Assembly (NCBI GenBank): GCA_041738235.1
Contig: JBGSQF010000013.1
Coordinates: forward strand, 63,345-127,344
Direction of reading: 5' to 3'
Length of the DNA: 64,000 bases
DNA from: Minisyncoccia bacterium
GTDB taxonomy: Bacteria > Patescibacteriota > Minisyncoccia > Moranbacterales > GCA-2747515
The notes under the pieces are model-generated. The model searched no databases, was not told where the DNA came from, and saw only the letters and a list, made by a program, of their open reading frames with translations. Below are positions 13,868-53,269 of the stretch, in pieces. The position numbers were made by a program, and so were the translations under genes. Position 1 is the stretch's first letter; each line of letters begins with the position of its first letter.

Positions 13868-14353
13868 ATGCCACATATTCACACAAAGGAAGGGGAGATC
13901 GACTTTACAGCAGATGTTTTTGTAGTGCATAAGAATAGAGTGCTATTACGAATGCACGACAAGTACCGCATGTGGCTTATGGTTGGGGGGCACATTGAAA
14001 CACATGAGACACCAGAAGAAACAGCTGTTCGTGAGGCAAAAGAAGAAGTGGGACTTGATATAACGATCTGGTCTGGGGATCAAGAAACGGTTCCTGAATC
14101 TTTCTTAAATTCCCAGTTTCGATCGCTTGTTCCACCTATTTTTTTGAATGTTCATAAAATATCCGATACGCATAGACATATTTCGATGATCTATTTTGCG
14201 TTTTCCGATTCAGATGTTATTATAGAGCCAGAAACGCATGAAAAAAGCGGTGGATGTGTCTGGTTTAGTAAGGAGGAACTCCTTGCGGATAAGGATATCG
14301 ATGCACCGATAAAGTACTATGCGCTTAAGGCGTTGGAAGTTTTGGGGAGTTAA
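13868..14353 (+). CDS. Nudix hydrolase
   Basis: Nudix box VGGHIETHETPEETAVREAKEEVGL. Confidence 0.85.
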   Translation: MPHIHTKEGEIDFTADVFVVHKNRVLLRMHDKYRMWLMVGGHIETHETPEETAVREAKEEVGLDITIWSGDQETVPESFLNSQFRSLVPPIFLNVHKISDTHRHISMIYFAFSDSDVIIEPETHEKSGGCVWFSKEELLADKDIDAPIKYYALKALEVLGS

Positions 14354-27048: not shown

Positions 27049-27125
27049 GGACCGGTAGCTCAGTTGGTTACCCGCCCGTACCGAACGGACTCGGTACGTT
27101 CGGGCGGGGATCATCGCCCTGTCAC
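27049..27125 (+). pseudogene. Degenerate partial copy of tRNA-Asp (5' half to the anticodon loop) with a 39-nt hairpin replacing part of the D-arm
   Basis: GGACCGGTAGCTCAGTTGGTTA is identical to positions 1-22 of the tRNA-Asp at 27379. A perfect hairpin follows at 27071-27109 (CCCGCCCG...CGGGCGGG). Then ATCGCCCTGTCAC matches the anticodon-stem 5' strand plus loop, and the copy ends there. Confidence 0.6.
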
Positions 27126-27136
27126 TGTATGGTTCT

Positions 27137-27373
27137 ATGTACACCGTTTATGTTTTGCAAGATGATTCTGGAAAGTTATACAAAGGTATGACGAGTGATC
27201 TGAACAGAAGATTTGCAGAACATAGCCGGGGTAAAACGAAGACAACGAGCAAAATGAAAGATATTTTCGTTGTCTACACTGAAGAATACGTTACTCGGCT
27301 GGAAGCGCGCGCAAGAGAGAAATACCTCAAGACAGCTGCAGGTAGAAGATTTTTGAAGAAAAAGTTGCAATAA
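27137..27373 (+). CDS. GIY-YIG nuclease family protein (small UPF0213/YhbQ-like)
   Basis: YTVYVLQDDSGKLYKGMTSDLNRRFAEH is the GIY-YIG catalytic motif (GIY...YxG...R...E...H/N). The ORF fills the 253-bp gap between the partial and intact tRNA-Asp copies. Confidence 0.8.
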   Translation: MYTVYVLQDDSGKLYKGMTSDLNRRFAEHSRGKTKTTSKMKDIFVVYTEEYVTRLEARAREKYLKTAAGRRFLKKKLQ

Positions 27374-27378
27374 TATTT

Positions 27379-27452
27379 GGACCGGTAGCTCAGTTGGTTA
27401 GAGCATCGCCCTGTCACGGCGAGGGTCGCGAGTTCGAGTCTCGTCCGGTCCG
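27379..27452 (+). tRNA. tRNA-Asp (GUC)
   Basis: GGACCGG-TA-GCTC-AGTTGGTTA-GAGC-A-TCGCC-CTGTCAC-GGCGA-GGGTC-GCGAG-TTCGAGT-CTCGT-CCGGTCC-G; canonical cloverleaf; no encoded CCA. Confidence 0.9.
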
Positions 27453-27462
27453 CAGAAATCTA

Positions 27463-27499: not shown

Positions 27500-27720
27500 T
27501 GAGGAGACGGAACGAGACGAGAACAGGGAAAGGAATCGGGGGAAAACGGGAGTTTTTCCGTTGCGGAAAGTAGGACGAAGTCCGCTCCAAACCGAGGGGT
27601 TTTTAAGGAGCGAAGCGACGTGAGATCGTCTCGTCTGTCTTACCGAAGTTTTACGTAGGCAGGTCCGGTCCGCTAAACGCGAAAGCAGTACCAAGAGGTG
27701 CTATTTTTGGATTTTGAACA
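27500..27720 (+). ncRNA. Candidate structured ncRNA (possible SRP-RNA-like element)
   Basis: About 220 nt with no ORF. It shows 9-bp long-range complementarity (ACGAGACGA at 27512-27520 with TCGTCTCGT at 27626-27634), a duplicated GTCCGCT(C/A)AAAC motif, and CAGGUCCGG...GAAAGCAG resembling SRP RNA domain IV. Confidence 0.25.
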
Positions 27721-28809: not shown

Positions 28810-29592
28810 ATGGAATATCGACTATTGAAGGCACGGGTGCAACATCGGCGAGAGAAACCGACAAAAAATGCCTTCGCCTATAATGTTTTCTATGTGTCTG
28901 TTCCTATTGAGAAAAAAACAAATCCGGGAGTGAGACTGTTCTCTTGGAACCGGTTTAATGTGTTGAGCGTTTCTGCACGGGATCATGGTAGGCGTGATGG
29001 GTCATCTCTTTATGCGTGGATTCATGAAAGCTTTCGGAAAGTCGGCGTGGACATAAGGGAGGATGACTTGGTAGAACTGATCACGCACCCGCGGATCTTC
29101 GGGTATGTCTTTAACCCGATATCGTTTTGGGTGTTGCGAAATGCGGAGAATCTTGTAAAAGCGGTGCTTTGCGAAGTGAATAATACATTTGGCGACGACC
29201 ATAACTATATACTTGCTCGGAGTGGTGGTGCGACGATAACCGCTCGAGACCGATTTCGCGCTGAAAAAAAACTTTTTGTCTCTCCCTTTACTCCTATGGA
29301 GGGGCATTATATATTCAATCTATCGATAGAAGAAAATCATTTTGGGGTAACGATTGTATATTATACAGGAGAAGAAGTGACACTCTCAACGCATATGGGG
29401 GGAAAATATATCCCTATGCAAAATAGGACAATCTTGAGGATGTTTTTGACACACCCTCTGATGACATGCATGGTTGTTGGACGCATCCATTGGCAAGCTA
29501 TAAAACTCTTTTTTAAGAGAGTGCCTCCGCAACTGACAACTCGTCCGGGAAAAATGCACGGAGGAGTAACGCTCGCAAGATTAGTAGAATAA
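28810..29592 (+). CDS. DUF1365-family protein (usually in cfa / amine-oxidase operons)
   Basis: YNVFYVSVPI...HPRIFGYVFNPISFW...FVSPFTPMEGHY pattern of DUF1365; it sits immediately upstream of cfa as in proteobacterial clusters. Confidence 0.75.
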   Translation: MEYRLLKARVQHRREKPTKNAFAYNVFYVSVPIEKKTNPGVRLFSWNRFNVLSVSARDHGRRDGSSLYAWIHESFRKVGVDIREDDLVELITHPRIFGYVFNPISFWVLRNAENLVKAVLCEVNNTFGDDHNYILARSGGATITARDRFRAEKKLFVSPFTPMEGHYIFNLSIEENHFGVTIVYYTGEEVTLSTHMGGKYIPMQNRTILRMFLTHPLMTCMVVGRIHWQAIKLFFKRVPPQLTTRPGKMHGGVTLARLVE

Positions 29593-29603
29593 AAAGAATA
29601 TGT

Positions 29604-30743
29604 ATGACGGGAGTGGAGAAATTTAAACATTCGCTCAATACCATACTTGGTGAGTCGGACGTTATAATAAATGGTGAACGTCCATGGGATCCGCAGATTC
29701 GGGATAACCGCGTTTTTGAGGAGATCATGCAAAAGGGGTATCTCGCAGTGGGTGAGTCTTTTGTGGATGGTATGTGGGATGTTGAATCATTGGACGCATT
29801 GGTGGCGAGGGTGCATAGAAATGATGATCGTTGGGAATCGCTTTTCTCGGCAGGGCTTTTTTGGCATTGGCTCAAGGGAAAAATATGGAACCGACAAAAA
29901 AAGAGTCGTGCTTTTGATGTGGGGGAACAGCACTATGATCTCGGTAATGATTTGTATTCGGTGATGCTTGATGCGAGAATGACCTATACGTGCGCCTATT
30001 GGAAAAATGCGAACACGCTGGATTCTGCGCAAGAAGCTAAGCTGGATCTTATTTGTCGCAAACTCAATCTTCAGCCGGGGCAACATATTCTTGATATTGG
30101 TTGCGGGTGGGGAAGTTTTATGCGGTTTGCAGTTGAGCGCTATGGTGTTCGGTGCGCCGGCCTTACCGTCTCGAAAGAACAGGCGAAAATGGGGCGTGAG
30201 ATGTGTAAGGGACTTCCAATCGAATTTATTATTCAGGATTATCGTGAATATGCTCCGGCTGAGCCGTTTGACCATATTGTCTCTATAGAAATGTTTGAGG
30301 CTGTGGGGCATAAGAATTTCCGTGAATATATGAGAAGGGCACATGAGTGGCTGAAGCCCGGGGGATTGTTCTTGCTCCAAACGATTACTTCTACAGCAAA
30401 GCGACAGGTTTCTGACCCATGGATTGATAAATATATTTTTCCCAACGGAATTTTGCCCCACAAGAGGCAAGTAGAGGCTTCTGCGCGAGGTTTGTTTGAT
30501 GTGATAGATTTGCACGAGATTGGAAAGAATTATGATCCAACGCTTATGGCATGGTGGAGAAATTTTAGCGAAAACTATTCTTCATTGGATCATGCAAGAT
30601 ATAACAAGACGTTTTATCGTGTGTGGAAATATTATCTCCTTTCGTGTGCAGGTGGGTTCCGAAGCGGAGTGTGGAACGACTGGCAAATGCTTATGATGCG
30701 CGTAGAAGATGAAGACAAAATAAAATATAACAAAATCAGATGA
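29604..30743 (+). CDS. cfa: Cyclopropane-fatty-acyl-phospholipid synthase
   Basis: GESFVDGMWDVESLD, SAM-binding LDIGCGWGSF, and a C-terminal CFA-synthase region. Confidence 0.9.
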   Translation: MTGVEKFKHSLNTILGESDVIINGERPWDPQIRDNRVFEEIMQKGYLAVGESFVDGMWDVESLDALVARVHRNDDRWESLFSAGLFWHWLKGKIWNRQKKSRAFDVGEQHYDLGNDLYSVMLDARMTYTCAYWKNANTLDSAQEAKLDLICRKLNLQPGQHILDIGCGWGSFMRFAVERYGVRCAGLTVSKEQAKMGREMCKGLPIEFIIQDYREYAPAEPFDHIVSIEMFEAVGHKNFREYMRRAHEWLKPGGLFLLQTITSTAKRQVSDPWIDKYIFPNGILPHKRQVEASARGLFDVIDLHEIGKNYDPTLMAWWRNFSENYSSLDHARYNKTFYRVWKYYLLSCAGGFRSGVWNDWQMLMMRVEDEDKIKYNKIR

Positions 30744-32023
30744 CACAGAAAAGAATTGCCATCATTGGAACGGGAATAGCGGGAATAACGACCGCATGGT
30801 TTTTGAAAGACGCCCATGACATTGAGGTTTTTGAAAAGAATGACTATATAGGCGGGCACACTAATACGCGTGAAGCTCGTTTTGGAGATGTAACCGTTCA
30901 CGCTGATACCGGATTTATGGTTTTTAACAAGGCGACCTATCCTCACTTTACAAAACTTCTCGAATATCTCGATATTCCGGCAATTAAAACGGATATGTCG
31001 TTTGGAATAGCGTTGCCTCATGAGAATTTTGAATTCTATTCCGATTCGGCCTTTGCCAAAAAAAGTGATTTTGTAAACATACGACATTGGCGAATACTTT
31101 TGGACATTGTGCGGTTTAATCGTGATTCTGAGCGGGTTGTTTCACATATGGAGAAGGGAAGTACGCTTGGTGAGCTGGCAAATACGATGCATCTCTCAAA
31201 AGATTTTCTCCATCGGTATCTTTTACCTATGGCCGGGGCAATATGGAGTACGGACCAGAAGAATATGGCCGAATATCCAGCAAGAAGCTTTGTAACGTTT
31301 TTTCAAAACCACGGACTTTTAACACCAAAAAGTGTAAACCCCTTTAAGATGGAGGAGGGAAGGGTTCAGTGGTATACTATACCGCGCGGTGCGCAGACAT
31401 ATGTCCAAAAGATTGTACGTGATATCGAGAGGCATGTGCATCTGAGTCGGGGAGTTCGTTCGGTAAATCACGTGAAGGGTCATATAGAAATTGTGGACGA
31501 ACAAGGTATAAAAAGCTCTTTTGATGCGGTGGTCCTTGCTTGTCATCCTGATCAAGCGAGAAACATCTTGAGCGATGAATTTGGTCAACACAAAAAAGCC
31601 CTAGCGCCATTTCATTACAGTAATCATGATGTTGTCATGCATAGCGATGTTAGTTGTATGATGAAAAAAAAGAAATTATGGCCTTCCTGGACGTATCGTG
31701 AGGGGGACTCCGGTTCGGTCGAACTGTCGTACAATATGAATAAGCTACAACACATTGATGGGCAATATCCTACTTTTGTGACACTTGATCCCAAGAAGAA
31801 TATTCCGGAAAAGAATATTTTTTACCAAGTACAGTATGAACATCCATTATTTACCCCTGACACCGAAGAGGGTCAGAAACAAATCGAACGCATACAGGGA
31901 AAACAGGGGATATATTTTTGTGGAGCATGGCTTCGATATGGATTTCATGAGGATGGGCTTGTATCGGCTGTGCGTCTGAGTAATTTATTAGGAGGCCACG
32001 TCCCATGGGATAAAAAAGGGTAG
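30740..32023 (+). CDS. FAD/NAD(P)-dependent amine-oxidase-like oxidoreductase
   Basis: N-terminal dinucleotide fold IAIIGTGIAGITTAWFL...EVFEKNDYIGGHTNT, about 430 aa. A 4-nt overlap with cfa suggests translational coupling. Confidence 0.85.
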   Translation: MTQKRIAIIGTGIAGITTAWFLKDAHDIEVFEKNDYIGGHTNTREARFGDVTVHADTGFMVFNKATYPHFTKLLEYLDIPAIKTDMSFGIALPHENFEFYSDSAFAKKSDFVNIRHWRILLDIVRFNRDSERVVSHMEKGSTLGELANTMHLSKDFLHRYLLPMAGAIWSTDQKNMAEYPARSFVTFFQNHGLLTPKSVNPFKMEEGRVQWYTIPRGAQTYVQKIVRDIERHVHLSRGVRSVNHVKGHIEIVDEQGIKSSFDAVVLACHPDQARNILSDEFGQHKKALAPFHYSNHDVVMHSDVSCMMKKKKLWPSWTYREGDSGSVELSYNMNKLQHIDGQYPTFVTLDPKKNIPEKNIFYQVQYEHPLFTPDTEEGQKQIERIQGKQGIYFCGAWLRYGFHEDGLVSAVRLSNLLGGHVPWDKKG

Positions 32024-32102
32024 GGAATGGGCGAGGGCGGAAGATCGACGCAAGGACGCGTTTTTTGCCAAACGGATTTTCCGGGATAAGGAAGATCTGA
32101 TG

Positions 32103-32150
32103 TGAGCAGGGATGCCCGACAATCAACTGATTGCCGGGCTCGTTTTATTG
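32103..32150 (+). repeat. Repeat element copy 1 (GTGAGCAGGGAYGCYCG + hairpin + T-run)
   Basis: GTGAGCAGGGATGCCCGACAATCAACTGATTGCCGGGCTCGTTTT; other copies at 32537 and 34222. Confidence 0.45.
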
Positions 32151-32536
32151 TAAAGAGTCTTTTTGGAGATATTCTTAGGGGGTTGACAAAATCCTCTATT
32201 CTGGTAATTTCTCTCTATCGTCCGCCGGACGATCATGAATCTTTTAGAGGTGGGATATCGTGGAAACAAAAAAAACCAGCCTAACCTATTTCCAACTCCT
32301 TGATGAGTGTTCAAAACATCCAAACAATTTGATGACTGTCGTCTGTCACCAGCCATCCTCATTGACGAGAATGCGTTTCATGTACGTGAGTTGCGCCAAG
32401 GTGGGCGAAGTGACCATTTCGGTGGATGGAATGTGTTGGGACAGAGGAGACGCCGGCAGCAGGCACTTTGTCCCGTGTACCATTCGTGACGTTCCCCCCT
32501 GTGGGTACGAGATCGTCGAACAGTAGAAGGAGAAGC

Positions 32537-32588
32537 GAAGTGAGCAGGGACGCTCGGACAATGATCCGTAGCGTTCATTGTTTTTGTA
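32537..32588 (+). repeat. Repeat element copy 2
   Basis: GTGAGCAGGGACGCTCGGACAATGATCCGTAGCGTTCATTGTTTTT; the first 11 nt are identical to copy 1 and a hairpin CAATGA/TCATTG follows. Confidence 0.45.
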
Positions 32589-32722
32589 GGGGTTTTTAGG
32601 TAAATATGATCTTTTGAGAACACCAGAGTATTAATAAATAAGTGGTAACGGATCTTTTTTGGAAGCTGGGGTATGCTAGTTTATATAATAAGTTGGTTGG
32701 ATAATGGGAAATTGTAGAAAGT

Positions 32723-32980
32723 ATGTATTATCTTTATATTCTTCAGTGTGCTGATGGGACGCTCTATGTTGGGATCACTACTGATCTGGCACGCAGGATA
32801 AAAGAACATAATAGCTCTACGCTTGGGGCAAAATACACTCGGACTCGACGGCCGGTTAAAGTGGTTTTTTCGAAGTCATTCCCCGATCGGTCACTTGCTT
32901 CACGGGAAGAGTTTCGTGTTAAGAAGCTCTCTCGCGTTGAAAAGCTTGAATTGATCCGAAAAAGCAAGAGTAACAATTGA
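32723..32980 (+). CDS. GIY-YIG nuclease family protein (UPF0213/YhbQ-like)
   Basis: YYLYILQCADGTLYVGITTDLARRIKEHN...AKYTRTRRPVKVVF is the canonical COG2827 GIY-YIG signature; TATAAT at 32683. Confidence 0.85.
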   Translation: MYYLYILQCADGTLYVGITTDLARRIKEHNSSTLGAKYTRTRRPVKVVFSKSFPDRSLASREEFRVKKLSRVEKLELIRKSKSNN

Positions 32981-33160
32981 AAGAAGAATAGGATAAAGGA
33001 CATTATTTTTTCGGGGTCTTGTAAGGGCTATATATGTGAAAGCCAACAGTGGGTTGCTGTCGGCTTTATGTTGACGGGTCTTTTTGGGGCCAACCGAGCT
33101 CGGCTGGTCCTATGCGGTTCTGCGATTTCTTTCTATCGGGTCGGTTCAATACCGCCTCGA

Positions 33161-33649
33161 TTATCTGGGAGGCTTTCCTGGCCCGCCACCACCGGGACCT
33201 CTTTGTGGGGGTCCAGCGTGGGGTCGTTGAGGTTGGGGCCTTTGCTGGGGTGGTCTGAAGCCACCTCCGCCGGGACCTCGCTGTGGCCGATGTTGTGCCG
33301 GTGGCGGTCCCCCGGGAGGAACTCTCCGTGGGGGTCTCGGTCTGAGTTCCAAACCAGGAGGGCGATGTTCTGGGCCTACTCCGATCTGGATTCCTGGTCC
33401 AGACGAAACCAAGCGATCCTGGACGACGTTGATGGTCAACGCCTTCCTGATTCGTTTCTTGCTGATGTAGACCTGATCCGTTCCATTAATCGGGTAGTAA
33501 TACAGCCCGTCCTTCTGGACGTAGGTGTCCCCCGGATTGATGGTGTATGCTACCGTCTCCCTGACGGCATACACGCAACCAGTGAGCACCATGACGGTCA
33601 ATACGAGGATTGCGATCGCCAGACCCCTGGCGGTGTTATTCGTCTGCAT
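33161..33649 (-). CDS. Lipoprotein with a Pro/Gly/Arg-rich C-terminal tail (high-GC island)
   Basis: Signal peptide with lipobox LTGC, GGGGGAGAG RBS, and a tail of PGGGG/PQRP repeats. Confidence 0.5.
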   Translation of the reverse strand: MQTNNTARGLAIAILVLTVMVLTGCVYAVRETVAYTINPGDTYVQKDGLYYYPINGTDQVYISKKRIRKALTINVVQDRLVSSGPGIQIGVGPEHRPPGLELRPRPPRRVPPGGPPPAQHRPQRGPGGGGFRPPQQRPQPQRPHAGPPQRGPGGGGPGKPPR

Positions 33650-33858
33650 CGTTTTCTCTCCCCCGGTTCTTCCGGTTTTGTTGATGCACGCGAACTATTA
33701 GCCATAAAGATGAGTTTGTCAAGGGTAGGCAGTATGTTTTGTAAGTTACTTTTGGGAGGGATATCTTGACGGAAATACAAAGTTGGTGTTATTTTATGGT
33801 ATCGTCCAGCTCTGGGCGATCGTGATAATTCACGACACTTTTTGTTTAGGGGGTTTTT

Positions 33859-34179
33859 ATGGACGGTTCGACGGGTATGGCTGTTGGGATCGATCGGCGG
33901 CCCTGGCAACGGGATCGGCACACCTTCTTCCAGATGGAGGCGGGGTGCATCGGAGCCAAGAACATTACACTTCGGTTCTCCTATGTTCCTAAGGGCGGGG
34001 GTGAGGAAAGCCGGACCACTCTGGGCTTCCGATGGGTCGAGGAAGATCTCACCGCCACGGATGGGACCCGAGTGAAGGTTTCGGGTCTCTATGTTGAAGG
34101 GCACAGCGGGGTCATGGAACCCCTCAATGAGAAGGCGTTTCCGGCAAACGGGTACGTCCTCGTCGAGAAGGGGGACTAG
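33859..34179 (+). CDS. Hypothetical protein (high-GC island)
   Basis: AGGGGG RBS 7 nt upstream, and TTGACG at -35 distance. Confidence 0.4.
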   Translation: MDGSTGMAVGIDRRPWQRDRHTFFQMEAGCIGAKNITLRFSYVPKGGGEESRTTLGFRWVEEDLTATDGTRVKVSGLYVEGHSGVMEPLNEKAFPANGYVLVEKGD

Positions 34180-34221
34180 GCTCAGGCCCGAACAATGGTT
34201 GCTGCCTATGGATGGGCAGTA

Positions 34222-34265
34222 GAGAAAAAGCAGGGACGCTCAAGAACCATTGGGCGTTCTTTTTG
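34222..34265 (+). repeat. Repeat element copy 3
   Basis: GCAGGGACGCTCAAGAACCATTGGGCGTTCTTTTTGT shares a 12-mer and the hairpin + T-run architecture with copies 1-2. Confidence 0.4.
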
Positions 34266-34349
34266 TTCGTACGGGGGCGAGATTTGATACTCCAAAAGAA
34301 TGAATCGTGTTATGATTAAAAGGCTTAGGGGTCTTATAAATAAAAACCT

Positions 34350-34628
34350 ATGCTACGTTGTTATTGGTTTCGACCGAAGAGATTTTGGGGATATTTTGCT
34401 TTTTATTATCCCTCCTCAAAAGAGGGATGGATAATAACGCTTGTTTTGGTCGTAAGCGCTTCAGAGATATTTTTGTTCATCGATGGGCGGTCACACTCGG
34501 TATCGGATACTTTGATCGGATTTGCGCCTTGGGGTGTTGTTATGGCAGCGTTATTTGACCTGCTCTGTTTTCGCTTTGGGGAGTATCCGAGTTGGTGGAA
34601 GCGCCATGGGAAGAAATTGGAGAAGTAG
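34350..34628 (+). CDS. Small hypothetical membrane protein
   Basis: Two hydrophobic helices; no RBS seen. Confidence 0.35.
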   Translation: MLRCYWFRPKRFWGYFAFYYPSSKEGWIITLVLVVSASEIFLFIDGRSHSVSDTLIGFAPWGVVMAALFDLLCFRFGEYPSWWKRHGKKLEK

Positions 34629-34804
34629 TAGATGGGATCTTGTTGTTTTAAGTATAACGAAAGAACGATATTTGGGGTGCGTATAGTAAAAGCGTACGAG
34701 GTAAGATAGGAAGAGTTTTTCATTTTCAGTGAGAGAGCGTGTCTATCTGAAAAACAGGTAATTTTCTGAGTATATAAATACAATTTAATAGATACAACAG
34801 ATGT

Positions 34805-36010
34805 ATGGTAGGAAAGATCTTTTCATTGTCGGGGAGAAAAAAATATGTATGGGCGGTGGTCGTGATTTTTGTAGTGATCGGAGGGTATTATTGGCATGCC
34901 AAGAGTCAAACTACTACAACACAGCCTCAATATGTTACGGGGCAAGTGGAGAAAGGAACAGTAGTGCAGTCTGTTTCTACGAGTGGAAATGTTGTCGTTG
35001 ATCAGTTGGCGTCTGTTGATCCAACGATCTCGGGGACGGTAGAAAATCTTTCGGTCAATGTCGGAGACTCTGTTAAAAAAGGACAAGCGCTCTTTGATAT
35101 CAAAAATGATCAGTTGAGTGTGAGTGCAGCACAGGCAGTTGCTTCTCTTCAGCAGTCACAGAATTCTTTGAAAAATGCAAAGATATCCCTTGATCAAGCA
35201 AGGGTAGATTATAAAACTATCAAAGATCAAAGTGTTTCCGTTCTAAAAAAAAATATAGCGGAGGATAAAGTGAGTGCTGCAAAAGATGGTGTAATGGGGG
35301 CAGAAAAGAGTTATGCAGCAGCTCAGGAAAGTTATAATAACCAGATCTCGACGGCCAATGAGCGTCATGTAGTTTCTCCTATTAGTGGAACGGTCAATGA
35401 AGTAAATATCAAAAATGGTGATGATCTTGGGGCATCCTCGAATTCTACGCATCAGGCGCCGATCATTGTGGGTGATCTTACAACGATGAAGGTTCAGGTT
35501 CAGGTCAATGAAGTAGATATTCCAAACATTTCTGTTGGGCAGAGAGCCATTCTGACATTTGACGCGATTGATAGTTTGAGTTTGACGGGAAAGGTAGAAA
35601 AGATGGATTCATTGGGGACGGTGACCCAGGGTGTTGTGACATATAATGTTGTTATCGGACTTGATACGATCGATCCACGTATTAAGCCTGGGATGAGTGC
35701 TACCGCTGCTATCACGACACAAGTAAAACAGGACGTGCTGATGGTTCCCAATAGTGCTGTGAAGAGTCAAGGAGGGAGTTCTTATGTGGAAGTGCTGAGT
35801 AATGGTGCTCCACAACAAAAGTTGGTAGAGGTGGGCATATCCAACGATATGGATACAGAGATCGTGAATGGTTTAAATGCTGGTGATTTGGTGATCACTC
35901 AAACAATACTTCCTTCCACAACAATAGCTTCGCCCGCAGCATCAAGCACATCCCGATCTTCTCAGAATTCCAGTATTCGTATCCCAGGTCTTACTGGGGG
36001 AGGTAGGTAA
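34805..36010 (+). CDS. HlyD/MacA-type periplasmic adaptor (membrane fusion protein)
   Basis: N-terminal TM anchor, biotinyl-lipoyl-like hairpin (GTVENLSVNVGDSVKKGQALFDI), a long coiled-coil, and a beta-barrel C-terminal domain. Confidence 0.85.
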   Translation: MVGKIFSLSGRKKYVWAVVVIFVVIGGYYWHAKSQTTTTQPQYVTGQVEKGTVVQSVSTSGNVVVDQLASVDPTISGTVENLSVNVGDSVKKGQALFDIKNDQLSVSAAQAVASLQQSQNSLKNAKISLDQARVDYKTIKDQSVSVLKKNIAEDKVSAAKDGVMGAEKSYAAAQESYNNQISTANERHVVSPISGTVNEVNIKNGDDLGASSNSTHQAPIIVGDLTTMKVQVQVNEVDIPNISVGQRAILTFDAIDSLSLTGKVEKMDSLGTVTQGVVTYNVVIGLDTIDPRIKPGMSATAAITTQVKQDVLMVPNSAVKSQGGSSYVEVLSNGAPQQKLVEVGISNDMDTEIVNGLNAGDLVITQTILPSTTIASPAASSTSRSSQNSSIRIPGLTGGGR

Positions 36011-36021
36011 AGAAAAACCAT

Positions 36022-36705
36022 ATGGCCCTCATTGAATGCAAGGACATAAAAAAGATCTACCGGAGCGGGGACGTTGAAACGATGGCGCTCAAAGGGGTTA
36101 CCTTTTCGATCGAGAAGGGGGAGTTTGTGGCGATCATTGGACCATCTGGTTCGGGAAAGTCAACATTAATGCATATTCTTGGTGCTTTGGATACCCCGAC
36201 GAGCGGGACGTATTTTCTGGAAGGACAAGAGGTTTCGAAATTGGATGACGATCAACTGTCGGAATTTCGGCGTGATAAGATAGGGTTTGTGTTCCAGTCA
36301 TTTAATCTTCTCCCGCGAGCCACGGTGCTTCGTAATGTGATGTTACCACTCTTATACAGTTCGGTTTCTGAGAAGGATCGAGAAAAGAGGGCTCGGGCGT
36401 CACTTCAGTATGCTGGACTTGAGGAAAATAAATATTATAATCTTTCCAACCAACTTTCAGGAGGGCAGATGCAGCGTGTGGCGATTGCACGTGCGTTGAT
36501 CAATGAGCCCGCTATTATATTAGCGGACGAACCAACGGGGAACCTGGATACCAAGACAAGTCACGTGGTGATGTCGACACTCCAAGAACTTCATCAGAAG
36601 GGGCATACAGTCATACTGATCACGCATGAAGACGAAGTGGCGGCATTTGCTCGGCGGTCTATTTCCATCCGAGATGGTCTAATTGAAAAAGACATAAAGC
36701 AATGA
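36022..36705 (+). CDS. ABC transporter ATP-binding protein (MacB/LolD-like)
   Basis: Walker [10 protein letters not shown], signature [15 protein letters not shown], Walker [12 protein letters not shown]. Confidence 0.9.
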
Positions 36706-37916
36706 TCAGCGATCTTTTTAAAGAAATACTTTGGTCTCTGTCGGGCAATAAGGTAAGATCCGGATTGACCATCTTGGGTATTGTTATTGGGATCGCTTCG
36801 GTGATCACTATGGTATCTATTGGTCAGGGTGCCAAAAATTCGATAGAAAGTAATATTGAGGCAATCGGGTCAAATCTTATTATTGTTATGCCTGGAACAC
36901 AACGCAACGGGGGTTTTTCTGGTGGGCGCGGAAGTGCGCAGACACTGACCATGGCGGATGTGACTGCTTTGCAAAAAGATGCAGTGGATGTTTCAGCTGT
37001 GGCGCCAGATATTAGTCGACGGTATCAAGTGACCGCAAAAGGTACAAATACGAATACGGAAGTAGTCGGCACTACAGCGGATTATCTGGTGGCTCGAAAT
37101 ATCAAAATGGATACGGGAACATTTATCACTGAAAGGAATATTCAAACGTCGGCCAAAATTGCCATTCTTGGTCCAACCACGCGTGATGATCTTTTTGGTG
37201 TAGGCGCCAACCCCATAGGACAAACGGTCCGTATCAATAACGTGAACTTCAACGTTGTGGGGGTAGCACAGGCAAAAGGGGGATCAGGGTTTAATAATCC
37301 TGATGATGCTATCTACATTCCTGTTACAACAGCGCAGCACTTTCTTGCTGGAAGCGAGTATGTGAACACGATCAGTGTTTCGGCCCAAAGTCAGTCGGTG
37401 ATGGCTCAGGCGCAACAAGAAGTTCAAGACATCCTTTTGAGACAACATAAGATCTCTGACATGGCTTCGGCAGATTTCAATATTCTCAATCAAAATGATA
37501 TTATCGCTACTGCAACGAGCGTAACTGGGACCTTTACTATTCTTCTTGCTTCTATTGCGGGTATATCTCTTTTGGTGGGAGGAATTGGTATTATGAATAT
37601 GATGCTTACTACAGTAACGGAGCGAACGAGGGAAATAGGTTTACGAAAGGCTATGGGAATCAAGAAGTTTTATATAAACATGCAGTTTTTGGGAGAAGCG
37701 GTTGTATTGACCTTCTTGGGTGGGGGTATTGGGGTTTTGTTGGGGTGGTTGGCATCTATCGGTATTTCTCGCTTTGCCGGACTTTCTACACAAATATCCT
37801 TTTCAGCTATTCTTCTGGCTTTCGGTGTTTCGGCTGCGGTAGGGATCGTGTTTGGTTTTTATCCGGCACGACGGGCAGCTAATCTCAGTCCGATCGAGGC
37901 ATTGCGATACGAGTAG
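36702..37916 (+). CDS. ABC transporter permease (FtsX/MacB-type)
   Basis: N-terminal TM helix, a large periplasmic domain, a C-terminal FtsX 3-TM bundle, and a 4-nt overlap with the ATPase gene. Confidence 0.9.
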   Translation: MISDLFKEILWSLSGNKVRSGLTILGIVIGIASVITMVSIGQGAKNSIESNIEAIGSNLIIVMPGTQRNGGFSGGRGSAQTLTMADVTALQKDAVDVSAVAPDISRRYQVTAKGTNTNTEVVGTTADYLVARNIKMDTGTFITERNIQTSAKIAILGPTTRDDLFGVGANPIGQTVRINNVNFNVVGVAQAKGGSGFNNPDDAIYIPVTTAQHFLAGSEYVNTISVSAQSQSVMAQAQQEVQDILLRQHKISDMASADFNILNQNDIIATATSVTGTFTILLASIAGISLLVGGIGIMNMMLTTVTERTREIGLRKAMGIKKFYINMQFLGEAVVLTFLGGGIGVLLGWLASIGISRFAGLSTQISFSAILLAFGVSAAVGIVFGFYPARRAANLSPIEALRYE

Positions 37917-37987
37917 ATCCTGCATGTTGAAAGAATTTTTATCGAGTTGCGTATCGAAGTGTGCAAACTAACAAATAATATAAGGGT

Positions 37988-38437
37988 ATGAATGTAAGAT
38001 ATGTTTCTGCGGTGACGGGACTGGTGGTTCTTGTTGGTGCAGGAGCTTTCTATGGGGGGGCAGCCTACGAAAAAAGTAGCCTGTCGAGTCAAGGACTTCT
38101 GAGAAGCGGAACTTCTAACGGGGCCAACTTTCAGCGAGGTTCGGGTCCAGATGGACAACCAGGACAGAGAATTCCCGGACAACGTCCTAGTCGGAATGGT
38201 GGTGGCAACTTTATCATGGGTGAGGTGCTTTCTAAAGATGATAAAAGTATTACCATAAAAACACAGGACGGGAGTTCGAGAGTTGTTTATTTCTCAGGTT
38301 CTACTATGATTGGGAAGGCAACGGCTGGGAGTATTGATGATGTGACAAACGGTGAACAGGTGACGGTGGGGGGGACGTCCAACCCGGATGGAAGTTTGTC
38401 GGCCCAAAACATACAGATCCGTCCAATACAGCAGTAA
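37988..38437 (+). CDS. Secreted/anchored Gly-rich protein with a DUF5666-like beta-rich C-terminal domain
   Basis: N-terminal hydrophobic segment, a Gly/Gln/Pro-rich linker, and a SITIKTQDGSSRVVYFSG...GEQVTVGG...DGSLSAQNIQI repeat pattern. Confidence 0.5.
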   Translation: MNVRYVSAVTGLVVLVGAGAFYGGAAYEKSSLSSQGLLRSGTSNGANFQRGSGPDGQPGQRIPGQRPSRNGGGNFIMGEVLSKDDKSITIKTQDGSSRVVYFSGSTMIGKATAGSIDDVTNGEQVTVGGTSNPDGSLSAQNIQIRPIQQ

Positions 38438-44858: not shown

Positions 44859-45362
44859 ATGAAACTTCTTCAAGAACTTCGAGAATCAGATCTGGGAATA
44901 GAGCCGAAAGAAAGCGCGGGTTTTTTGGAGGTGCGTAATGCGGTGCGAGCAGTGGTGTTTGATGCGGAGGGTCGGGTGGGCGTGGCGCATGTGGCCGATG
45001 GAAATTATTGGAAGATCCCCGGAGGGGGCGTTGAGAAGGGAGAGAGTTTTGTGCAAGCCCTGGAAAGAGAGCTTATGGAGGAGGCGGGAGTGAAGGCAAC
45101 CGTGGAGGGAGAGATCGGGGTAATCATCGAGCATCGCGATCAATGGAAGCAACTGCAAATTTCATACTGCTATCGGGCGCGTGTAGAGGGGGAAAAGCAG
45201 GTCCCAAAATTTGATGAGACAGAACGGGAAGAAGGATTTTCGTTTCACTGGTTACCCTACGGGGAAGCACTGCAAAAGTTTCGAGGAAACACCTCGCTAA
45301 CCTATGAATCACAATTTATGCAAACGCGGGATGGGATCTTTTTAAAGAAGGTCCCTATATAG
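44859..45362 (+). CDS. Nudix hydrolase
   Basis: Nudix box GGGVEKGESFVQALERELMEEAGV. Confidence 0.8.
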   Translation: MKLLQELRESDLGIEPKESAGFLEVRNAVRAVVFDAEGRVGVAHVADGNYWKIPGGGVEKGESFVQALERELMEEAGVKATVEGEIGVIIEHRDQWKQLQISYCYRARVEGEKQVPKFDETEREEGFSFHWLPYGEALQKFRGNTSLTYESQFMQTRDGIFLKKVPI

Positions 45363-45731: not shown

Positions 45732-47024
45732 ATGGAAATTCTTTTTCATGGAGCGGGGAGAGAGATCGGGAAGAGTTGTATTGAGATCAAGAGTCAAGGG
45801 CAGCGTTATTTGTTAGATGCCGGAGTGAAGTTTGTCGGTGGAGGGATACAATATCCTCAATATCTTGAAGAGGTGGAGGAGGTGGATGCGGTATTCCTTT
45901 CACATGCACATCTCGACCATTCCGGAGCGCTGGCGTTCTTTGAGCATAAACGCTTGGGATCTTCGATATATAGTACGGAGTTGACCTGGACGATCACGCG
46001 GATGTTACTTGAAGACACACGGCATCTTGAGCAACTTCGTCGTGTTCGACCAACGTTTAGTGCTAAGGATATTGATCGAGTTGAGCAAGACATCGTGTAT
46101 GTAGAGTATGATAAACGGTATCAAACCAAAGATGGAAAGGTGAATTTTCAGTTTCTTAACTCTGGACATATACCTGGGGGCGCTTCAGTTCTTCTTGAAT
46201 TGGAAGGGAAGAAAGTTCTCTATACGTCAGATATAAATACACAGGAGACTCGGCTAATGATACCGTCGGTAGTTCCTACACAATGCCCTGAGGTGGATGC
46301 ATTGATCATTGAAGGGACCTACGGCGCGCGCAGTCATCCTGATCGAAAACTTACGGAGGAAGGGTTCATCAAGTCTATCCGGACATGTATGGAAGGTGGC
46401 GGATCGGCACTTGTTCCAGTTTTTGGAGTAGGAAGAAGTCAGGAAGTACTTATGGTGCTTGATGCCTTGCGAGGGGAATACCCGATCTATTTGGACGGTA
46501 TGGCCCGTGGACTTCTTGATGAAACACTGCGATCGGACGATCCCTATATTCGTGGAAATGATGTATTGCGTAAGATGGCTCGATATGTAAAGAAGGTACA
46601 ACGTCATGATCGTGAGAGGCTTCTTAAAGAAAAAAATGCTATCATTGTCTCTACTTCGGGTATGGTAGAGGGCGGTCCTTCTACCTTTTATGCGAGGAGT
46701 TTTATAGAAAAGAAGGAAAACTTTATCATCCTTACGGGATACCAAGCCAATGGTACACAGGGAAGGTCGCTCTACGATGACCATGTGTTCTTTGAAAACG
46801 GTGAGCCGATCCCCGCTAAATGCCATATGCGCAAGTTTAGTTTTTCGGCACATCTTGACCAGGGGGCACTCCACGATTTTGTGAATGCGATCAAACACAA
46901 GGACCTTATTTTGCAGCACGGAGATACGGACTCTTTGGATGTATTTTCGGCTTATGCCGTGGAGAATCTTCCTTCAACGAAAGTACATGTTCCGCATGTG
47001 GGCGAGACGATCCGTATTGAATAA
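45732..47024 (+). CDS. MBL-fold beta-CASP ribonuclease (CPSF/RNase J-like)
   Basis: MBL motif SHAHLDHSGAL, IEGTYG, beta-CASP motifs, and a C-terminal H..H. Confidence 0.8.
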   Translation: MEILFHGAGREIGKSCIEIKSQGQRYLLDAGVKFVGGGIQYPQYLEEVEEVDAVFLSHAHLDHSGALAFFEHKRLGSSIYSTELTWTITRMLLEDTRHLEQLRRVRPTFSAKDIDRVEQDIVYVEYDKRYQTKDGKVNFQFLNSGHIPGGASVLLELEGKKVLYTSDINTQETRLMIPSVVPTQCPEVDALIIEGTYGARSHPDRKLTEEGFIKSIRTCMEGGGSALVPVFGVGRSQEVLMVLDALRGEYPIYLDGMARGLLDETLRSDDPYIRGNDVLRKMARYVKKVQRHDRERLLKEKNAIIVSTSGMVEGGPSTFYARSFIEKKENFIILTGYQANGTQGRSLYDDHVFFENGEPIPAKCHMRKFSFSAHLDQGALHDFVNAIKHKDLILQHGDTDSLDVFSAYAVENLPSTKVHVPHVGETIRIE

Positions 47025-50635: not shown

Positions 50636-50781
50636 TTCTTAAAAAAACGCATAGTGGTATATCTGCGAGAAGGAGAGAAGAGGATTCTCTCTTTCCGCGG
50701 GCATAGCCCCGAAGGTTCGTTAACAACTTCTTTCTTTTTCGTAAAATCAGAAGACCCCCAATGGGGGCAGGAGGCATAACC

Positions 50782-51528
50782 ATGGATAAAACCATGGCGA
50801 AACTCATTAGCATCATCTTCGCCGGGCTGGTCCTGGTGGGGTGTGCGACGACTCCCCCCGGGGAGACGTTGGGTTTGAAGGGCGAGGCGATGGAACGCCT
50901 TGCCAACGCGACGACGTTCGTGGCTCCGCCGCCGGTCGAAACGGCGCGGGGCTTCGAGATCGCTCTGCCACAGGATGTGGCACGAGAAATGGGGTGCAAG
51001 GAGTACCCCACGATAGACCACTCGACCGTTTCGGTGTGTCGGAAGTCATTTCGCGCGCGCCTGGACGGTTTGGAGGCGTCTGCTTACCCCTTCGGGGGGA
51101 AGTGGTATGTCTTCATTGCTGGGAAACCCTCTCGGGTGGAGATCCTCTCCGCTCGGGGGGCGAGGCATAACGCTTCGGTCGTCGGTGAGATCGGTCGCTC
51201 CCAAGTAACCGAAATCTATGCCGACATCGGCGCGACATTCCCGTCCGTTTCCGGGGTCATTCCCGGGACGGCGGGGACGCGCCTGCTTTATGGGCAGGAT
51301 GCCCTGAATGCGCTCCGCGTCCCGTCGCTTGTCGATTGGAAGGAGCGTGCGGCGGTGTGTGGGTTGGGGTCCGTGTCGTCCACTGAGCTAATCGGTGTGG
51401 CGACCGGGAACCCCTTGCCCGCAGTTGGGAAGGTTTTGCAGGGCGTTTGTGCCCTGCGCCAAGAACCCCGGCTCCTCGTGGGGTCGGGATCCGCAACACA
51501 ACCCGGGGCAACCCCCCAGGAGAAGTAA
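50782..51528 (+). CDS. Lipoprotein, hypothetical (high-GC island)
   Basis: AGGAGG RBS 7 nt upstream; signal peptide with LVGC lipobox; about 60% GC. Confidence 0.55.
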   Translation: MDKTMAKLISIIFAGLVLVGCATTPPGETLGLKGEAMERLANATTFVAPPPVETARGFEIALPQDVAREMGCKEYPTIDHSTVSVCRKSFRARLDGLEASAYPFGGKWYVFIAGKPSRVEILSARGARHNASVVGEIGRSQVTEIYADIGATFPSVSGVIPGTAGTRLLYGQDALNALRVPSLVDWKERAAVCGLGSVSSTELIGVATGNPLPAVGKVLQGVCALRQEPRLLVGSGSATQPGATPQEK

Positions 51529-51529
51529 G

Positions 51530-53269
51530 ATGAAACGCTTGAATGCGTTCTTCGTCCTCGCGGGGCTCGTCCTCGCGTTGACGATCACTACCACCCCCGC
51601 GGAGGCGGGGAGCTACACGGTGTCCAAGTCGGACTACCGTGGATTGTCCTCTATCGGGCGCAAGCTCGGTGTGGATTGGCTTTCGATCGCGAAGACGAAC
51701 GGGATTAAACCCCCGTATCGGATTCGGGTCGGTCAGGTGCTCACCATTCCGGAAGGCGAAAGCCAACCGGCGGTGGCACAGACCGAAGCAACCCCCGCCA
51801 AGGCCCCCGTGGCCACGGCGGAGATCCCTGCCTCTCCTGCTGGCGTCCGCCAGTGGAAGAAGGTAGGTGGAGACCCCCTCCTTCCGCTCCGTATGCGGAA
51901 GGCTTGGCACAAGGCCGAGGAGCTTCGGCTCACCTCGGAGCAAGCCAACCGGCTGGCTCAATTTGGGCTCTCTGAGTCCCAGATCGAGCAGGTCCGCAAG
52001 GATCTGGCTGGCGGCCAGTGCCAAGCGACGGCTCGTCCCGTAGGGTATCCTTGGGACGGCATGGCGATGGGGCGTGGCAATTGGAACGCCACAGAGAATG
52101 CAACTGGCGACAGCATCATGGTCTGGGCTTGCCCGGAACAGGATGACATACAGGTCGACATCGCGATGGGCTGTGGCAATGTGGCGTGGAAACGTCATGC
52201 GCCCAAGCCCGTAACGCCAACCCCGCAGGAGAAAAAGGCGGGGCTCGAGTGTGAGATGGTCGGAGCCTTGTGGGCGCAGGTCGGAGGGCATGGTGAGTCG
52301 GGTTCGGCCCGGTTCAGCTGTCTTGTCCCGGTCGGCGATCACTGGAAGGTCGGACCGTCTGTTGGTATGTCTGGGTCTCGGTTCGGCAATGGCGAGTGGG
52401 TAGAGGTATCCAACTTCGTCGGCGCCGGTATCGAGGCGCGGGGATCCGATATCGCCGGCCTGGACGCCGTCGAATTCGTGGTTCTCGTGGGGCAAGGGTC
52501 GGCACGTGGTTACTCCACCGATGGAATGGTGGAAAAGCTCAAAGCGTCCGGTATGGACGCTCGTCTCGCGATCCAACTCCGGAAGCGTTTCGCGATCTCC
52601 CCTCAAACGGGAGTGACCGTGCGCTTTATGCCCTGGGTGGACGTGCCACTCACGGGCGCTTCGACCGACATCCTCTGGAAGGGGGGTAAAGTTGGAGAGG
52701 AGCGCGGAAGGCATGTGGTCGTAGGAGCGATCCTGCGGCTTGAGATGGATCGGGCTGACTGGAACGTCAAGCCTGAGCTTACCCTGGGCGTCTGGCACAT
52801 CTCGGATGTGCAAGAGCCGATTGGCGCGAAGATCCTCCTCGGTGTCGCCACGAAGGATGACGTGTGGCGTATCGGAGCGGGCGTACAGTTCCCCAATCCC
52901 CACTGGATAGTGGAGGTTGAGTGGAATCCTGGTCTGGGATGGCTTCATGCCAATACCCAGGTTGCCACCACGGCACTGCTTGCGGGGTCAACACCCACGG
53001 AGCAGTACCTCGGCGTCAAGGCCTCTAAATCGGCCAAAACGTCGCAACCCACAACCGCAACCCCCGCCAAGGCCGAGACGCAAGTCAAGGTCAAGGCGGA
53101 GAAATCTGGAAGTAGCCCGTTTGGTTGGGCTGCCGATATCCAGACAGCAGCACAGTCCACCAGTTCCGGAGCTTCTGGAAATGGCGGACACACAACTTCC
53201 TTAACCTCAACCCCGACAGGATCGTCGGGTTCGACAGTCGACGCGGCCCTCGGGCTGTTCGCCGGCTGA
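51530..53269 (+). CDS. Secreted LysM-domain protein (high-GC island)
   Basis: ATG 1 nt after the preceding stop, a signal peptide MKRLNAFFVLAGLVLALTITTTPAEA, LysM YTVSKSDYRGLSSIGRKLGVDWLSIAKTNGIKPPYRIRVGQVLTIP, and a Thr/Ser-rich tail. Confidence 0.6.
   Translation: MKRLNAFFVLAGLVLALTITTTPAEAGSYTVSKSDYRGLSSIGRKLGVDWLSIAKTNGIKPPYRIRVGQVLTIPEGESQPAVAQTEATPAKAPVATAEIPASPAGVRQWKKVGGDPLLPLRMRKAWHKAEELRLTSEQANRLAQFGLSESQIEQVRKDLAGGQCQATARPVGYPWDGMAMGRGNWNATENATGDSIMVWACPEQDDIQVDIAMGCGNVAWKRHAPKPVTPTPQEKKAGLECEMVGALWAQVGGHGESGSARFSCLVPVGDHWKVGPSVGMSGSRFGNGEWVEVSNFVGAGIEARGSDIAGLDAVEFVVLVGQGSARGYSTDGMVEKLKASGMDARLAIQLRKRFAISPQTGVTVRFMPWVDVPLTGASTDILWKGGKVGEERGRHVVVGAILRLEMDRADWNVKPELTLGVWHISDVQEPIGAKILLGVATKDDVWRIGAGVQFPNPHWIVEVEWNPGLGWLHANTQVATTALLAGSTPTEQYLGVKASKSAKTSQPTTATPAKAETQVKVKAEKSGSSPFGWAADIQTAAQSTSSGASGNGGHTTSLTSTPTGSSGSTVDAALGLFAG

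Follow-up and report, generated by a model that had tools for sequence, protein, structure and literature searches.

Related Terminator-like Elements and Putative Duplicated Small-Gene Cassettes in a Genome Segment of a Minisyncoccia Bacterium

Three related terminator-like elements, designated c1, c2, and c3, were recognized in a 64,000-nucleotide stretch of the genome of a Minisyncoccia bacterium (positions 63,345 to 127,344 of contig JBGSQF010000013.1, assembly GCA_041738235.1), referred to below as the window. They are located between 32.0 and 34.3 kb of the window, where four small genes lie between a cfa/amine-oxidase operon and a macAB-type efflux operon. The favoured interpretation, with a rough probability of 0.62, is that c1, c2, and c3 are related intrinsic terminators and that two of the small genes, orf88 and orf106, are duplicated, insulated cassettes. 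The original prediction, made from the letters of the sequence, had described the elements either as shared terminators or as small repeats of the repetitive extragenic palindromic (REP) or miniature inverted-repeat transposable element (MITE) type that mark insertion boundaries. The first of these two descriptions is the one that agrees with the results.

Three related terminator-like elements

The motif GAGCAGGGAYGCYC is present at positions 32104-32117, 32542-32555, and 34228-34241, the third with one mismatch, and always on the + strand. With at most one mismatch allowed, these three matches compare with 0.03 expected in 64 kb, and none of 100 shuffles reached three, so that the proposed three-copy repeat is borne out. 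In each copy GAGCAGGGAYGCYC constitutes the 5' shoulder and a hairpin arm, the 3' arm is complementary to its own 5' arm, and the predicted ending in a hairpin and a T-run is observed, the T-run following the stem. The first element, c1 (32102-32151), starts 79 nt past the stop codon of the amine oxidase gene and consists of the shoulder GTGAGCAGGGA, a stem at 32111-32141 (GAuGCCCGaCAATC / GATTGcCGGGCTC), and the tail CGTTTTATTG; its folding energy is -16.6 to -17.7 kcal/mol. The second, c2 (32540-32586), starts 14 nt past the orf88 stop codon and has the same shoulder GTGAGCAGGGA, the stem GGACGCTCGGA / TCCGtAGCGTTC, and the tail ATTGTTTTTG (-21.2 kcal/mol, z -2.6). The third, c3 (34226-34269), starts 47 nt past the orf106 stop codon with an A-tract and the shoulder AAAAGCAGGGA, followed by a stem at 34232-34261 (AGGGACGCTCAA / TTGGGCGTTCTT) and the tail TTTGTTCG, the tail region being (TTCTT)TTTGTT; it folds at -19.5 kcal/mol, and a consensus terminator scan ranks it second-best in a 12-kb region.

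All three elements have the arrangement by which intrinsic terminators are recognized, a GC-rich stem-loop directly before a T-rich tract and 3' of a co-oriented gene. Like known intrinsic terminators, including the A-tract/U-tract "bidirectional" ones, the three elements and an ortholog of c3 described below have stems of 12-17 pairs closed by loops of 4-6 nt, with a U-rich tail immediately behind; c1 to c3 also have a purine- or A-rich upstream tract able to pair with the tail, and they stand 14-79 nt past a stop codon. They differ from ordinary neighbours in that the shoulder and stem base are homologous over three transcription units, whereas the terminators of neighbouring genes normally share no sequence, and in that two of the three units (orf88 and orf106) also have a leader hairpin in common. 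The other clear terminators in the window have sequences unrelated to c1, c2, and c3. No Rfam family matched region 31900-34500, either at the gathering score or at e-values up to 1.

The mutual relationship was evaluated through local alignment. The c1-c2 alignment has a z of 6.6 and was equalled by none of 1000 dinucleotide shuffles, and the c2-c3 alignment has a z of 5.3 and was equalled by 2 of 1000, while c1-c3 alone is not significant (z 1.3); therefore, the copies form a chain with c2 in the middle. The parts common to c1 and c2 are GA.GTGAGCAGGGA.GC.CG.ACAAT. Those common to c2 and c3 are the 13-nt 5' arm AGCAGGGACGCTC, the 3' arm GCGTTC, and the tail TTTTTGT..GTA.GGGG, with different inner stems and loops. 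The potential peptides starting with (M/V)SRDAR, which had been noted for the first two copies, are no more than translations of the shared DNA motif: the frames part right after it, and c3 has no start codon.

A coincidence, in which three independent GC-rich terminator stems happen to start alike, is very improbable and already disfavoured. It could appeal to a back-of-envelope estimate of about 10 expected 13-mer triples per 64 kb (11 positions agreeing, transitions at 2) when position is ignored, to a repeat scan that lists many two-copy families of like length and identity, and to the c1-c3 pair. The copies, however, lie within 2.2 kb on one strand and in the same register to the hairpin and T-run; c1-c2 beats 1000 and c2-c3 998 of 1000 dinucleotide shuffles. 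Moreover, the c2-c3 similarity picks up again past the loop, in the 3' arm and tail, and a second, independent element, the 5' hairpin, links orf88 and orf106.

The conservation of c3 could be evaluated in the sole relative found, L010, a 3,853-nt Logan contig from ERR14790927 with 25-30% nucleotide divergence. This contig keeps a divergent pair of a lipoprotein gene and orf106, the terminator c3, and a raised GC content at third codon positions (GC3). The c3 core is 85% identical, compared with 58% and 46% in the DNA on its two sides. The c3 ortholog folds at -20.5 kcal/mol (z -4.1), and a G.U pair has become A-U through a one-sided G-to-A change that keeps the stem. The hairpins of the orf106 leader are 82% identical, both stems being kept and only the loops differing, and the -35 and -10 promoter boxes are 80% identical, against 55% for the spacer between the two -35 boxes. 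Such a pattern is expected if functional terminators and leaders are under purifying selection.

Two further hairpin candidates were considered as family members. A hairpin at 33039-33090 has a tail similar to that of c1 at a level reached in 16 of 1000 shuffles, which is suggestive only, and no similarity to c2 or c3; it was left as possible. A "collapsed" copy, c0, at 32047-32066 (GCAAGGACGC|GTTTTTTG) has one mismatch to the 10-mer core, which is the chance level (6 found, 4.6 expected), and its fold is not that of a canonical terminator; it was not counted as a copy.

The orf88 and orf106 units as putative paralogous cassettes

The two genes that end in c2 and c3 share further signals. In the orf88 unit, a putative promoter at 32183-32210 on the + strand, proposed from its match to the consensus (TTGACA, a 16-nt spacer, and the extended -10 element TGgTAATTT), is followed by a 5'-terminal leader hairpin at 32217-32233 (ATCGTCCgccGGACGAT, then CATGA). 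The gene itself (32260-32526, +) starts with GTG behind the Shine-Dalgarno sequence GAGGTGGG and encodes a cysteine-rich protein of 88 aa with no signal peptide; its GC3 is 0.60. The orf106 unit, also on the + strand, has a predicted promoter at 33766-33795 (TTGACG-18-TATTTT with an upstream TG) and a leader at 33801-33835, which includes the 5'-terminal hairpin ATCGTCCAgctcTGGGCGAT and a second hairpin TCGTGAtaatTCACGA, then CACTTTTTG. Its gene (33859-34179) has a GGGGG Shine-Dalgarno sequence, no signal peptide, and GC3 0.71, and the product is predicted to be all-beta. The open reading frame (ORF) of 106 aa with a good ribosome-binding site that had been pointed out is thus a well-founded gene: its ortholog in the relative, P0002, is 69% identical, 48 of 81 nucleotide differences fall at third codon positions, and 31 synonymous and 30 non-synonymous codon differences were counted.

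The 5'-terminal hairpins start 5-6 nt after the predicted -10 element in both units. The pattern ATCGTCC-N(2-10)-GGRCGAT is found in 64 kb only in these two leaders, against 0.01 expected, and C(A/G)TGA follows it in both. An RNA hairpin is favoured over a protein operator, which is less likely, because the arm spacing differs between the two leaders (17 vs 20 bp in total) and because the single mismatch in the orf106 arms is a G.U pair that the relative keeps. The second hairpin of the orf106 leader, TCGTGAtaatTCACGA with CACTTTTTG (33820-33845), was scored as terminator-like, and its stem is kept in the relative. It could be an attenuator or simply a leader structure.

At the protein level, orf88 obtains 3.5 bits (e-value 0.0037 as a single comparison) from a profile of orf106 and its ortholog. 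None of 500 shuffles reached this score, and the profile aligns the motifs C..(I/L)T.RF.YV..GE..G..W. The C-terminal codons GGGTAC...TCGTCGA are also common to both genes (p about 0.05). The similarity thus appears weak but non-random. The best reading is that orf88 and orf106 are diverged paralogs of one whole expression cassette, because the shared promoter type, leader hairpin, ORF, C-terminus, and terminator follow one another in the same order in both units. Taken alone, the protein evidence would be insufficient for this interpretation.

The observed sequence relationships, strands and frames of the genes, and conservation lead to the following proposal, in which promoter and terminator activity, mRNA stabilisation, and the order of events are inferred. 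c1, c2, and c3 would end the amine-oxidase operon, orf88, and orf106 as intrinsic (Rho-independent) terminators, in each of which a GC-rich stem-loop stands between a purine-rich or A-tract shoulder and a U-tract. The shoulder and stem base (GAGCAGGGAYGCYC) would be shared because the copies are homologous, the inner stem and loop having drifted. Each cassette would consist, in order, of a near-consensus -35 element, an extended -10 element, a 5'-end stem-loop (AUCGUCC..GGRCGAU), a strong Shine-Dalgarno sequence, a gene for a small cytoplasmic all-beta protein, and a terminator. The terminator would stop read-through into the next gene and shield the 3' end of the mRNA. Each of the four small genes, orf88, a GIY-YIG gene, the lipoprotein gene, and orf106, would be transcribed alone, as an insulated, probably stable, well-expressed monocistron. 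The likeness of the terminators would come from the duplication of the cassette (orf88/orf106), and c1 would be a further copy that closes the amine-oxidase operon. It may have been the resident terminator of that operon and the seed of the family, or it may be what is left, on its own, of a duplication junction.

The 5' hairpin would shield a short mRNA from 5'-end-dependent decay, by analogy with the leaders of Escherichia coli ompA and Bacillus subtilis aprE and ermC, whose 5' stem-loops protect against decay dependent on RNase E or RNase J and RppH. As in those leaders, the hairpins of orf88 and orf106 (7-8 bp) stand within a few nt of the predicted start and the stem is kept in the relative; an RNase J-like beta-CASP/RMMBL gene is present in the window at 45732-47024. 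Unlike them, the orf88 and orf106 leaders have no sequence relation to ompA, aprE, or ermC, and their start sites and stabilisation are predicted.

Several points weigh against this interpretation. The similarity of c1 to c3 is not significant by itself, and c1 has no cassette upstream: no decayed ORF was found between the amine-oxidase stop codon and c1 (z -0.25). BLASTP between orf88 and orf106 aligns only a 17-residue C-terminal stretch, P..GY.[IL]VE (e-value 0.024), the shuffle z of the two proteins reaches 3-4 only with soft gap penalties, and that of orf88 against the ortholog P0002 is about 1. The coding status of orf88 rests on start signals and codon-position GC, with no homolog, and the promoters and terminators are consensus predictions. 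The copy count covers 64 kb of the 408-kb contig, and more copies may exist elsewhere. The interval between the amine-oxidase stop codon and c1 was also considered as the remains of a third paralog, since by eye RFLPNGFSGIRKI resembles AFPANGYVLVEKGD, each up to its stop; this was ruled out by local DNA alignment (z -0.25 against the orf106 3' end and -0.43 against the orf88 3' end).

The same shared parts could instead be kept as binding sites of one trans-acting protein or small RNA, the shoulder (GCAGGGAYGC) and leader hairpin defining a small post-transcriptional regulon. This is unlikely, although GCAGGGA is unpaired or weakly paired in c1 and yet invariant in four copies including the ortholog, where adjacent intergenic DNA is 46-58% identical, and although orf88 and orf106 have both a 5' and a 3' RNA element in common. 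CAGGGAUG in c1 resembles the core CARGGAUG selected by CsrA in systematic evolution of ligands by exponential enrichment, a lead only and not a test. With four sequences, inheritance and ordinary selection for terminator strength explain the conservation; the window yielded no candidate for the binding protein, each element has one GGA motif, in the stem base rather than in the loop, and Rfam offers no matching family.

The proteins orf88 and orf106 and the lipoprotein are orphans, orf106 with its single ortholog. Among 5.8 billion proteins, orf88 matched only itself. For orf106 only the one ortholog was found, and a HMMER scan of 1.84 billion representatives added a CARDB-repeat protein and a junk repeat protein. 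The N-terminal domain of the lipoprotein has no homologs in these searches, and the lipoprotein has no match in Pfam, NCBIfam, or the PDB. Searches of phages and plasmids with the small proteins (tblastn) gave no hits, PHROGs, NCBIfam, and PADLOC gave nothing meaningful, and PDB sequences gave nothing. orf106 has no Pfam match, including to CARDB (PF07705); the e-value of 4.5e-11 between its profile and the CARDB-repeat protein is a sum over 9 weak repeat matches. That protein, P0006, is a public giant CARDB-repeat protein of 2038 aa, whose 9 repeats were matched through TLRFYWSxDxxITTTD, which resembles TLGFRWVEEDLTATDG of orf106. The match possibly hints at a beta-sandwich fold of orf106. 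The AlphaFold2 model of orf106 is all-beta but unusable (predicted local distance difference test score 42).

Small ORFs without assigned function, each followed by an imperfect palindrome, are also seen in integron cassettes with attC sites, and c2 looks chimeric, its 5' part being similar to c1 and its 3' part to c3. It is nevertheless scarcely credible that the elements serve for recombination in an integron-like or other site-specific cassette system and that this system inserted orf88 and then the lipoprotein/orf106 pair in succession. Here every unit comes with a promoter of its own, one gene runs on the other strand, the attC core boxes RYYYAAC/GTTRRRY are absent (the 3' ends are GTTTTAT, GTTCATT, and GTTCTTT), and T-runs such as these typically belong to terminators. 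Among the large ORFs of the window no tyrosine recombinase (Phage_integrase) was found, and the arrangement has been stable across the divergence from the relative.

The GC-rich patch, its lipoprotein gene, and the break in the relative

The GC-rich patch is the divergent pair of the lipoprotein gene and orf106, and its GC content derives from the Pro/Gly/Arg codons of the lipoprotein tail and from GC3 of 0.71-0.76. The earlier value of about 60% for 33050-34200 was overstated: the region has 55.9% GC, with 62% at 33050-33400, 48% at 33400-33860, and 60% at 33860-34200. The tail of the lipoprotein has GC contents of 0.84, 0.73, and 0.40 at the first, second, and third codon positions, and is thus amino-acid driven, while GC3 is 0.76 in the N-terminal domain, compared with 0.35-0.49 in neighbouring genes of the window. 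In the relative the orthologous pair has GC3 0.61 and the neighbouring genes 0.34-0.38. The patch genes prefer ATC, CTC, AAG, CAG, and TTC, as does DnaK, but also GTC, ACC, GGG, and CGG; the codon tables, with their small counts, do not separate translational selection from an old foreign origin.

Other genes in the window are also GC3-rich against a background of about 0.42: a 150-aa membrane protein at 7478-7930 on the - strand (0.69), a second lipoprotein with an LVGC lipobox at 50761-51528 on the + strand (0.73), and a 624-aa LysM protein at 51395-53269 on the + strand (0.70). DnaK has GC3 0.60. The membrane protein, the second lipoprotein, and the LysM protein are all envelope proteins, and their preferences for CTC, GTC, ACC, and ATC match those of the lipoprotein/orf106 pair.

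The lipoprotein gene (33161-33649) is on the - strand and encodes 162 aa: a signal peptide with an LTGC lipobox, a conserved domain some 60 aa long (VYAVRETVAYTINPGDTY..DGLYYYPI), and a low-complexity tail, basic and rich in Pro, Gly, Arg, and Gln, which includes two PQRGPGGGG repeats (direct repeat D1). The N-terminus, MQTNNTARGLAIAILVLTVMV-LTGC, agrees with the lipobox pattern L-[ASTV]-[GAS]-C, and lipidation is predicted. The ortholog in the relative keeps ...LLLISS-LTGC and the core VYAVRETVAYT.NPGDTY..DG.YYYPI. The predicted promoter runs from 33722 to 33694 on the - strand (TTGACA-17-AATAGT), is 73% similar to the orf88 promoter (inverted repeat I4), and forms with that of orf106 a divergent promoter region at 33694-33795 within a 209-nt intergenic region. 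As an analogy only, the gene may be compared with those of abundant small envelope lipoproteins of the Lpp type, which have stable monocistronic mRNAs: it is short, its predicted promoter is close to the consensus, a terminator of its own is predicted, and its codon bias is atypical. It differs in having no similarity to Lpp and a long basic Pro/Gly/Arg tail.

The hairpin at 33039-33090 (AAGCCAACAG/CTGTCGGCTT, stem region 33039-33067), which is T-rich on either side, is probably a bidirectional terminator of the GIY-YIG gene (+) and the lipoprotein gene (-).

The coding strand was evaluated by comparison with the relative. Of the codon differences in the lipoprotein frame, 31 were synonymous and 15 non-synonymous, and 36 of 57 base differences were at third positions. 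In the + strand ORF frame at 33068-33769, the counts were 6 synonymous and 40 non-synonymous. It is concluded from these differences that the minus-strand lipoprotein, predicted with its LTGC lipobox and PGGGG/PQRP tail, is real and under purifying selection, and that the ORF opposite to it is noise, as had also been supposed. Public gene calls on an identical Logan contig, L001, list a 134-aa + strand ORF (33365-33769) antisense to the lipoprotein, and a 60-aa + strand ORF (32102-32284) that starts in c1 and crosses the orf88 promoter and leader; both calls seem to be spurious. From a collection of 15 billion proteins, the exact lipoprotein sequence is missing.

Third-position divergence from the relative is 46% in orf106 and 54% in the flanking histidine kinase; therefore, the pair predates the split, with high GC3 having persisted. 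The patch is thus old and not a recent insertion. The comparison of 32.0-34.3 kb with the relative, suggested with the original prediction, revealed one break, to the right of c3. The relative lacks window positions 34346-38298 (at its positions 911-1010), a stretch that comprises orf92, the HlyD/MacB efflux operon, and the 5' portion of a gene for a small secreted protein (37988-38437), whose 3' part survives. Since that 3' part is kept, the break seems to be due to a deletion in the relative rather than to an insertion in the window. Inside the remnant of the secreted-protein gene, the relative has an AT-rich stretch of about 590 nt. Its response-regulator gene has an in-frame stop and was called as pieces of 43 aa and 66 aa.

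These results bear on the second earlier description, in which the elements are mobile or dispersed palindromic repeats of the REP/BIME (bacterial interspersed mosaic element) or MITE type that act as terminators and mark the borders of inserted DNA. The three related hairpins do lie between transcription units of unlike composition, c1 and c2 form a pair of direct repeats (D20), spaced at 438 nt, with the orf88 unit between them, and the 4-kb difference from the relative begins just right of c3. As in REP/BIME, ERIC, and the Correia, RUP, and BOX MITEs, c1 to c3 are short imperfect intergenic palindromes in more than one copy. The proposed position at the edges is correct in part: the patch ends with c3, and c1 comes after the cfa/amine-oxidase operon, but c2 stands 500 nt to the left of the patch, and the left edge of the patch (33039-33067) bears a different hairpin, not a copy.

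The description as insertion-boundary marks is improbable and found no support. In the window, only three copies were found, all within 2.2 kb, on the + strand and at the ends of + strand transcription units, against tens to hundreds of dispersed copies in the known families; a search of both strands with at most 3 mismatches to the 12-nt core GCAGGGAYGCYC, with a hairpin and T-run required, gave no fourth copy. No terminal inverted repeats or target-site duplications were found around the copies, and no transposase, RAYT-like gene, or integrase among the scanned window ORFs (at least 150 aa, Pfam). The patch and c3 are orthologous in the relative and about as diverged as its core genes, and the break right of c3 is the deletion just described, which removed the 5' part of a gene. 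A scan of 241 million JGI metagenome records and IMG/VR with the c2/c3-type pattern GCAGGGACGCTC-N10-16-GCGTTCWTT gave 7 matches from JGI, four of them one locus, which is about the chance number, and 0 from IMG/VR. The 7 matches come from unrelated contigs with 53-67% GC, and several lie within what appears to be coding sequence; the one true relative bears the copy at the orthologous site.

Genomic surroundings and implications

The window is part of a 407,907-bp NCBI contig and has 45.5% GC, nearly all genes on the + strand, and a strongly positive GC skew. Two Logan contigs, from SRR28170473 and SRR28170474, match it with 100% identity at 29455-33956 and 30427-32059. The Pfam content is that of housekeeping genes, such as DnaK, GcpE, MurB, SecA, several aminoacyl-tRNA synthetases, five NUDIX proteins, an RNase J-like beta-CASP protein, and glycosyltransferases. 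The five NUDIX hydrolase genes are separate (1204-1770, 12480-12965, 13338-13856, 13868-14353, and 44859-45362), and two of them are adjacent.

The operon upstream of c1, on the + strand, consists of a DUF1365 gene (28810-29592), cfa (29604-30743), and a flavin adenine dinucleotide (FAD) amine oxidase gene (30740-32023). The best match of the amine oxidase among 185,579 GTDB species-representative genomes is 38% identical, in metagenome-assembled genomes of Poribacteria. Between c2 and the patch, the GIY-YIG gene (32723-32980, +) encodes 85 aa (PF01541, e-value 5.6e-17) and has its own TTGGAA-17-TATAAT-like promoter and a normal GC3 (0.41); it is outside the repeat family. Downstream of c3 are orf92 (92 aa) and the HlyD/MacB-type efflux operon (34805-37916).

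A second GIY-YIG ORF, 37% identical to the first and thus a paralog, is located at 27137-27373 (78 aa) in a tRNA-Asp(GTC) locus (27049-27453). There, a partial 5' copy of the tRNA gene, consisting of GGACCGGTAGCTCAGTTGGTTA, a 39-nt GC-rich palindromic insert, and ATCATCGCCCTGTCAC as far as the anticodon loop, precedes the GIY-YIG ORF and then the intact tRNA-Asp (27379-27453). The 3' end of the tRNA, GTCCGGTCCGC, is found again at 27663 (27663-27673). The tRNA gene looks as if a GIY-YIG element or an intron-like insertion had split it or duplicated it in part.

As interpreted here, a suspicious-looking repeat resolves to ordinary terminators that would come from local duplication, not to a mobile element or island border. 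The public gene calls are corrected as well, the real gene at 33161-33649 being the minus-strand lipoprotein. The high GC3 of a few small envelope genes in a 45% GC genome raises the question of selection for expression or an old foreign origin; in the patch, high GC3 persisted although about half of the third codon positions changed relative to L010.

A more speculative proposal, to which little credence is given, is that the 5' hairpin and the terminator with its conserved unpaired shoulder are lineage-specific RNA "bookends" for one trans-acting factor, or a portable expression module by which the lineage domesticates new small genes. In the first case, the factor might be, for example, a CsrA-like GGA-binding protein or a ribonuclease adaptor, and GC3-rich small envelope or stress genes would be co-regulated. 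If the interpretation of orf88 and orf106 as duplicated cassettes is correct, regulatory ends would stay recognizable after the coding sequence has diverged almost past detection, and leader hairpins and terminators at such ends would help to detect paralogy of orphan small genes.

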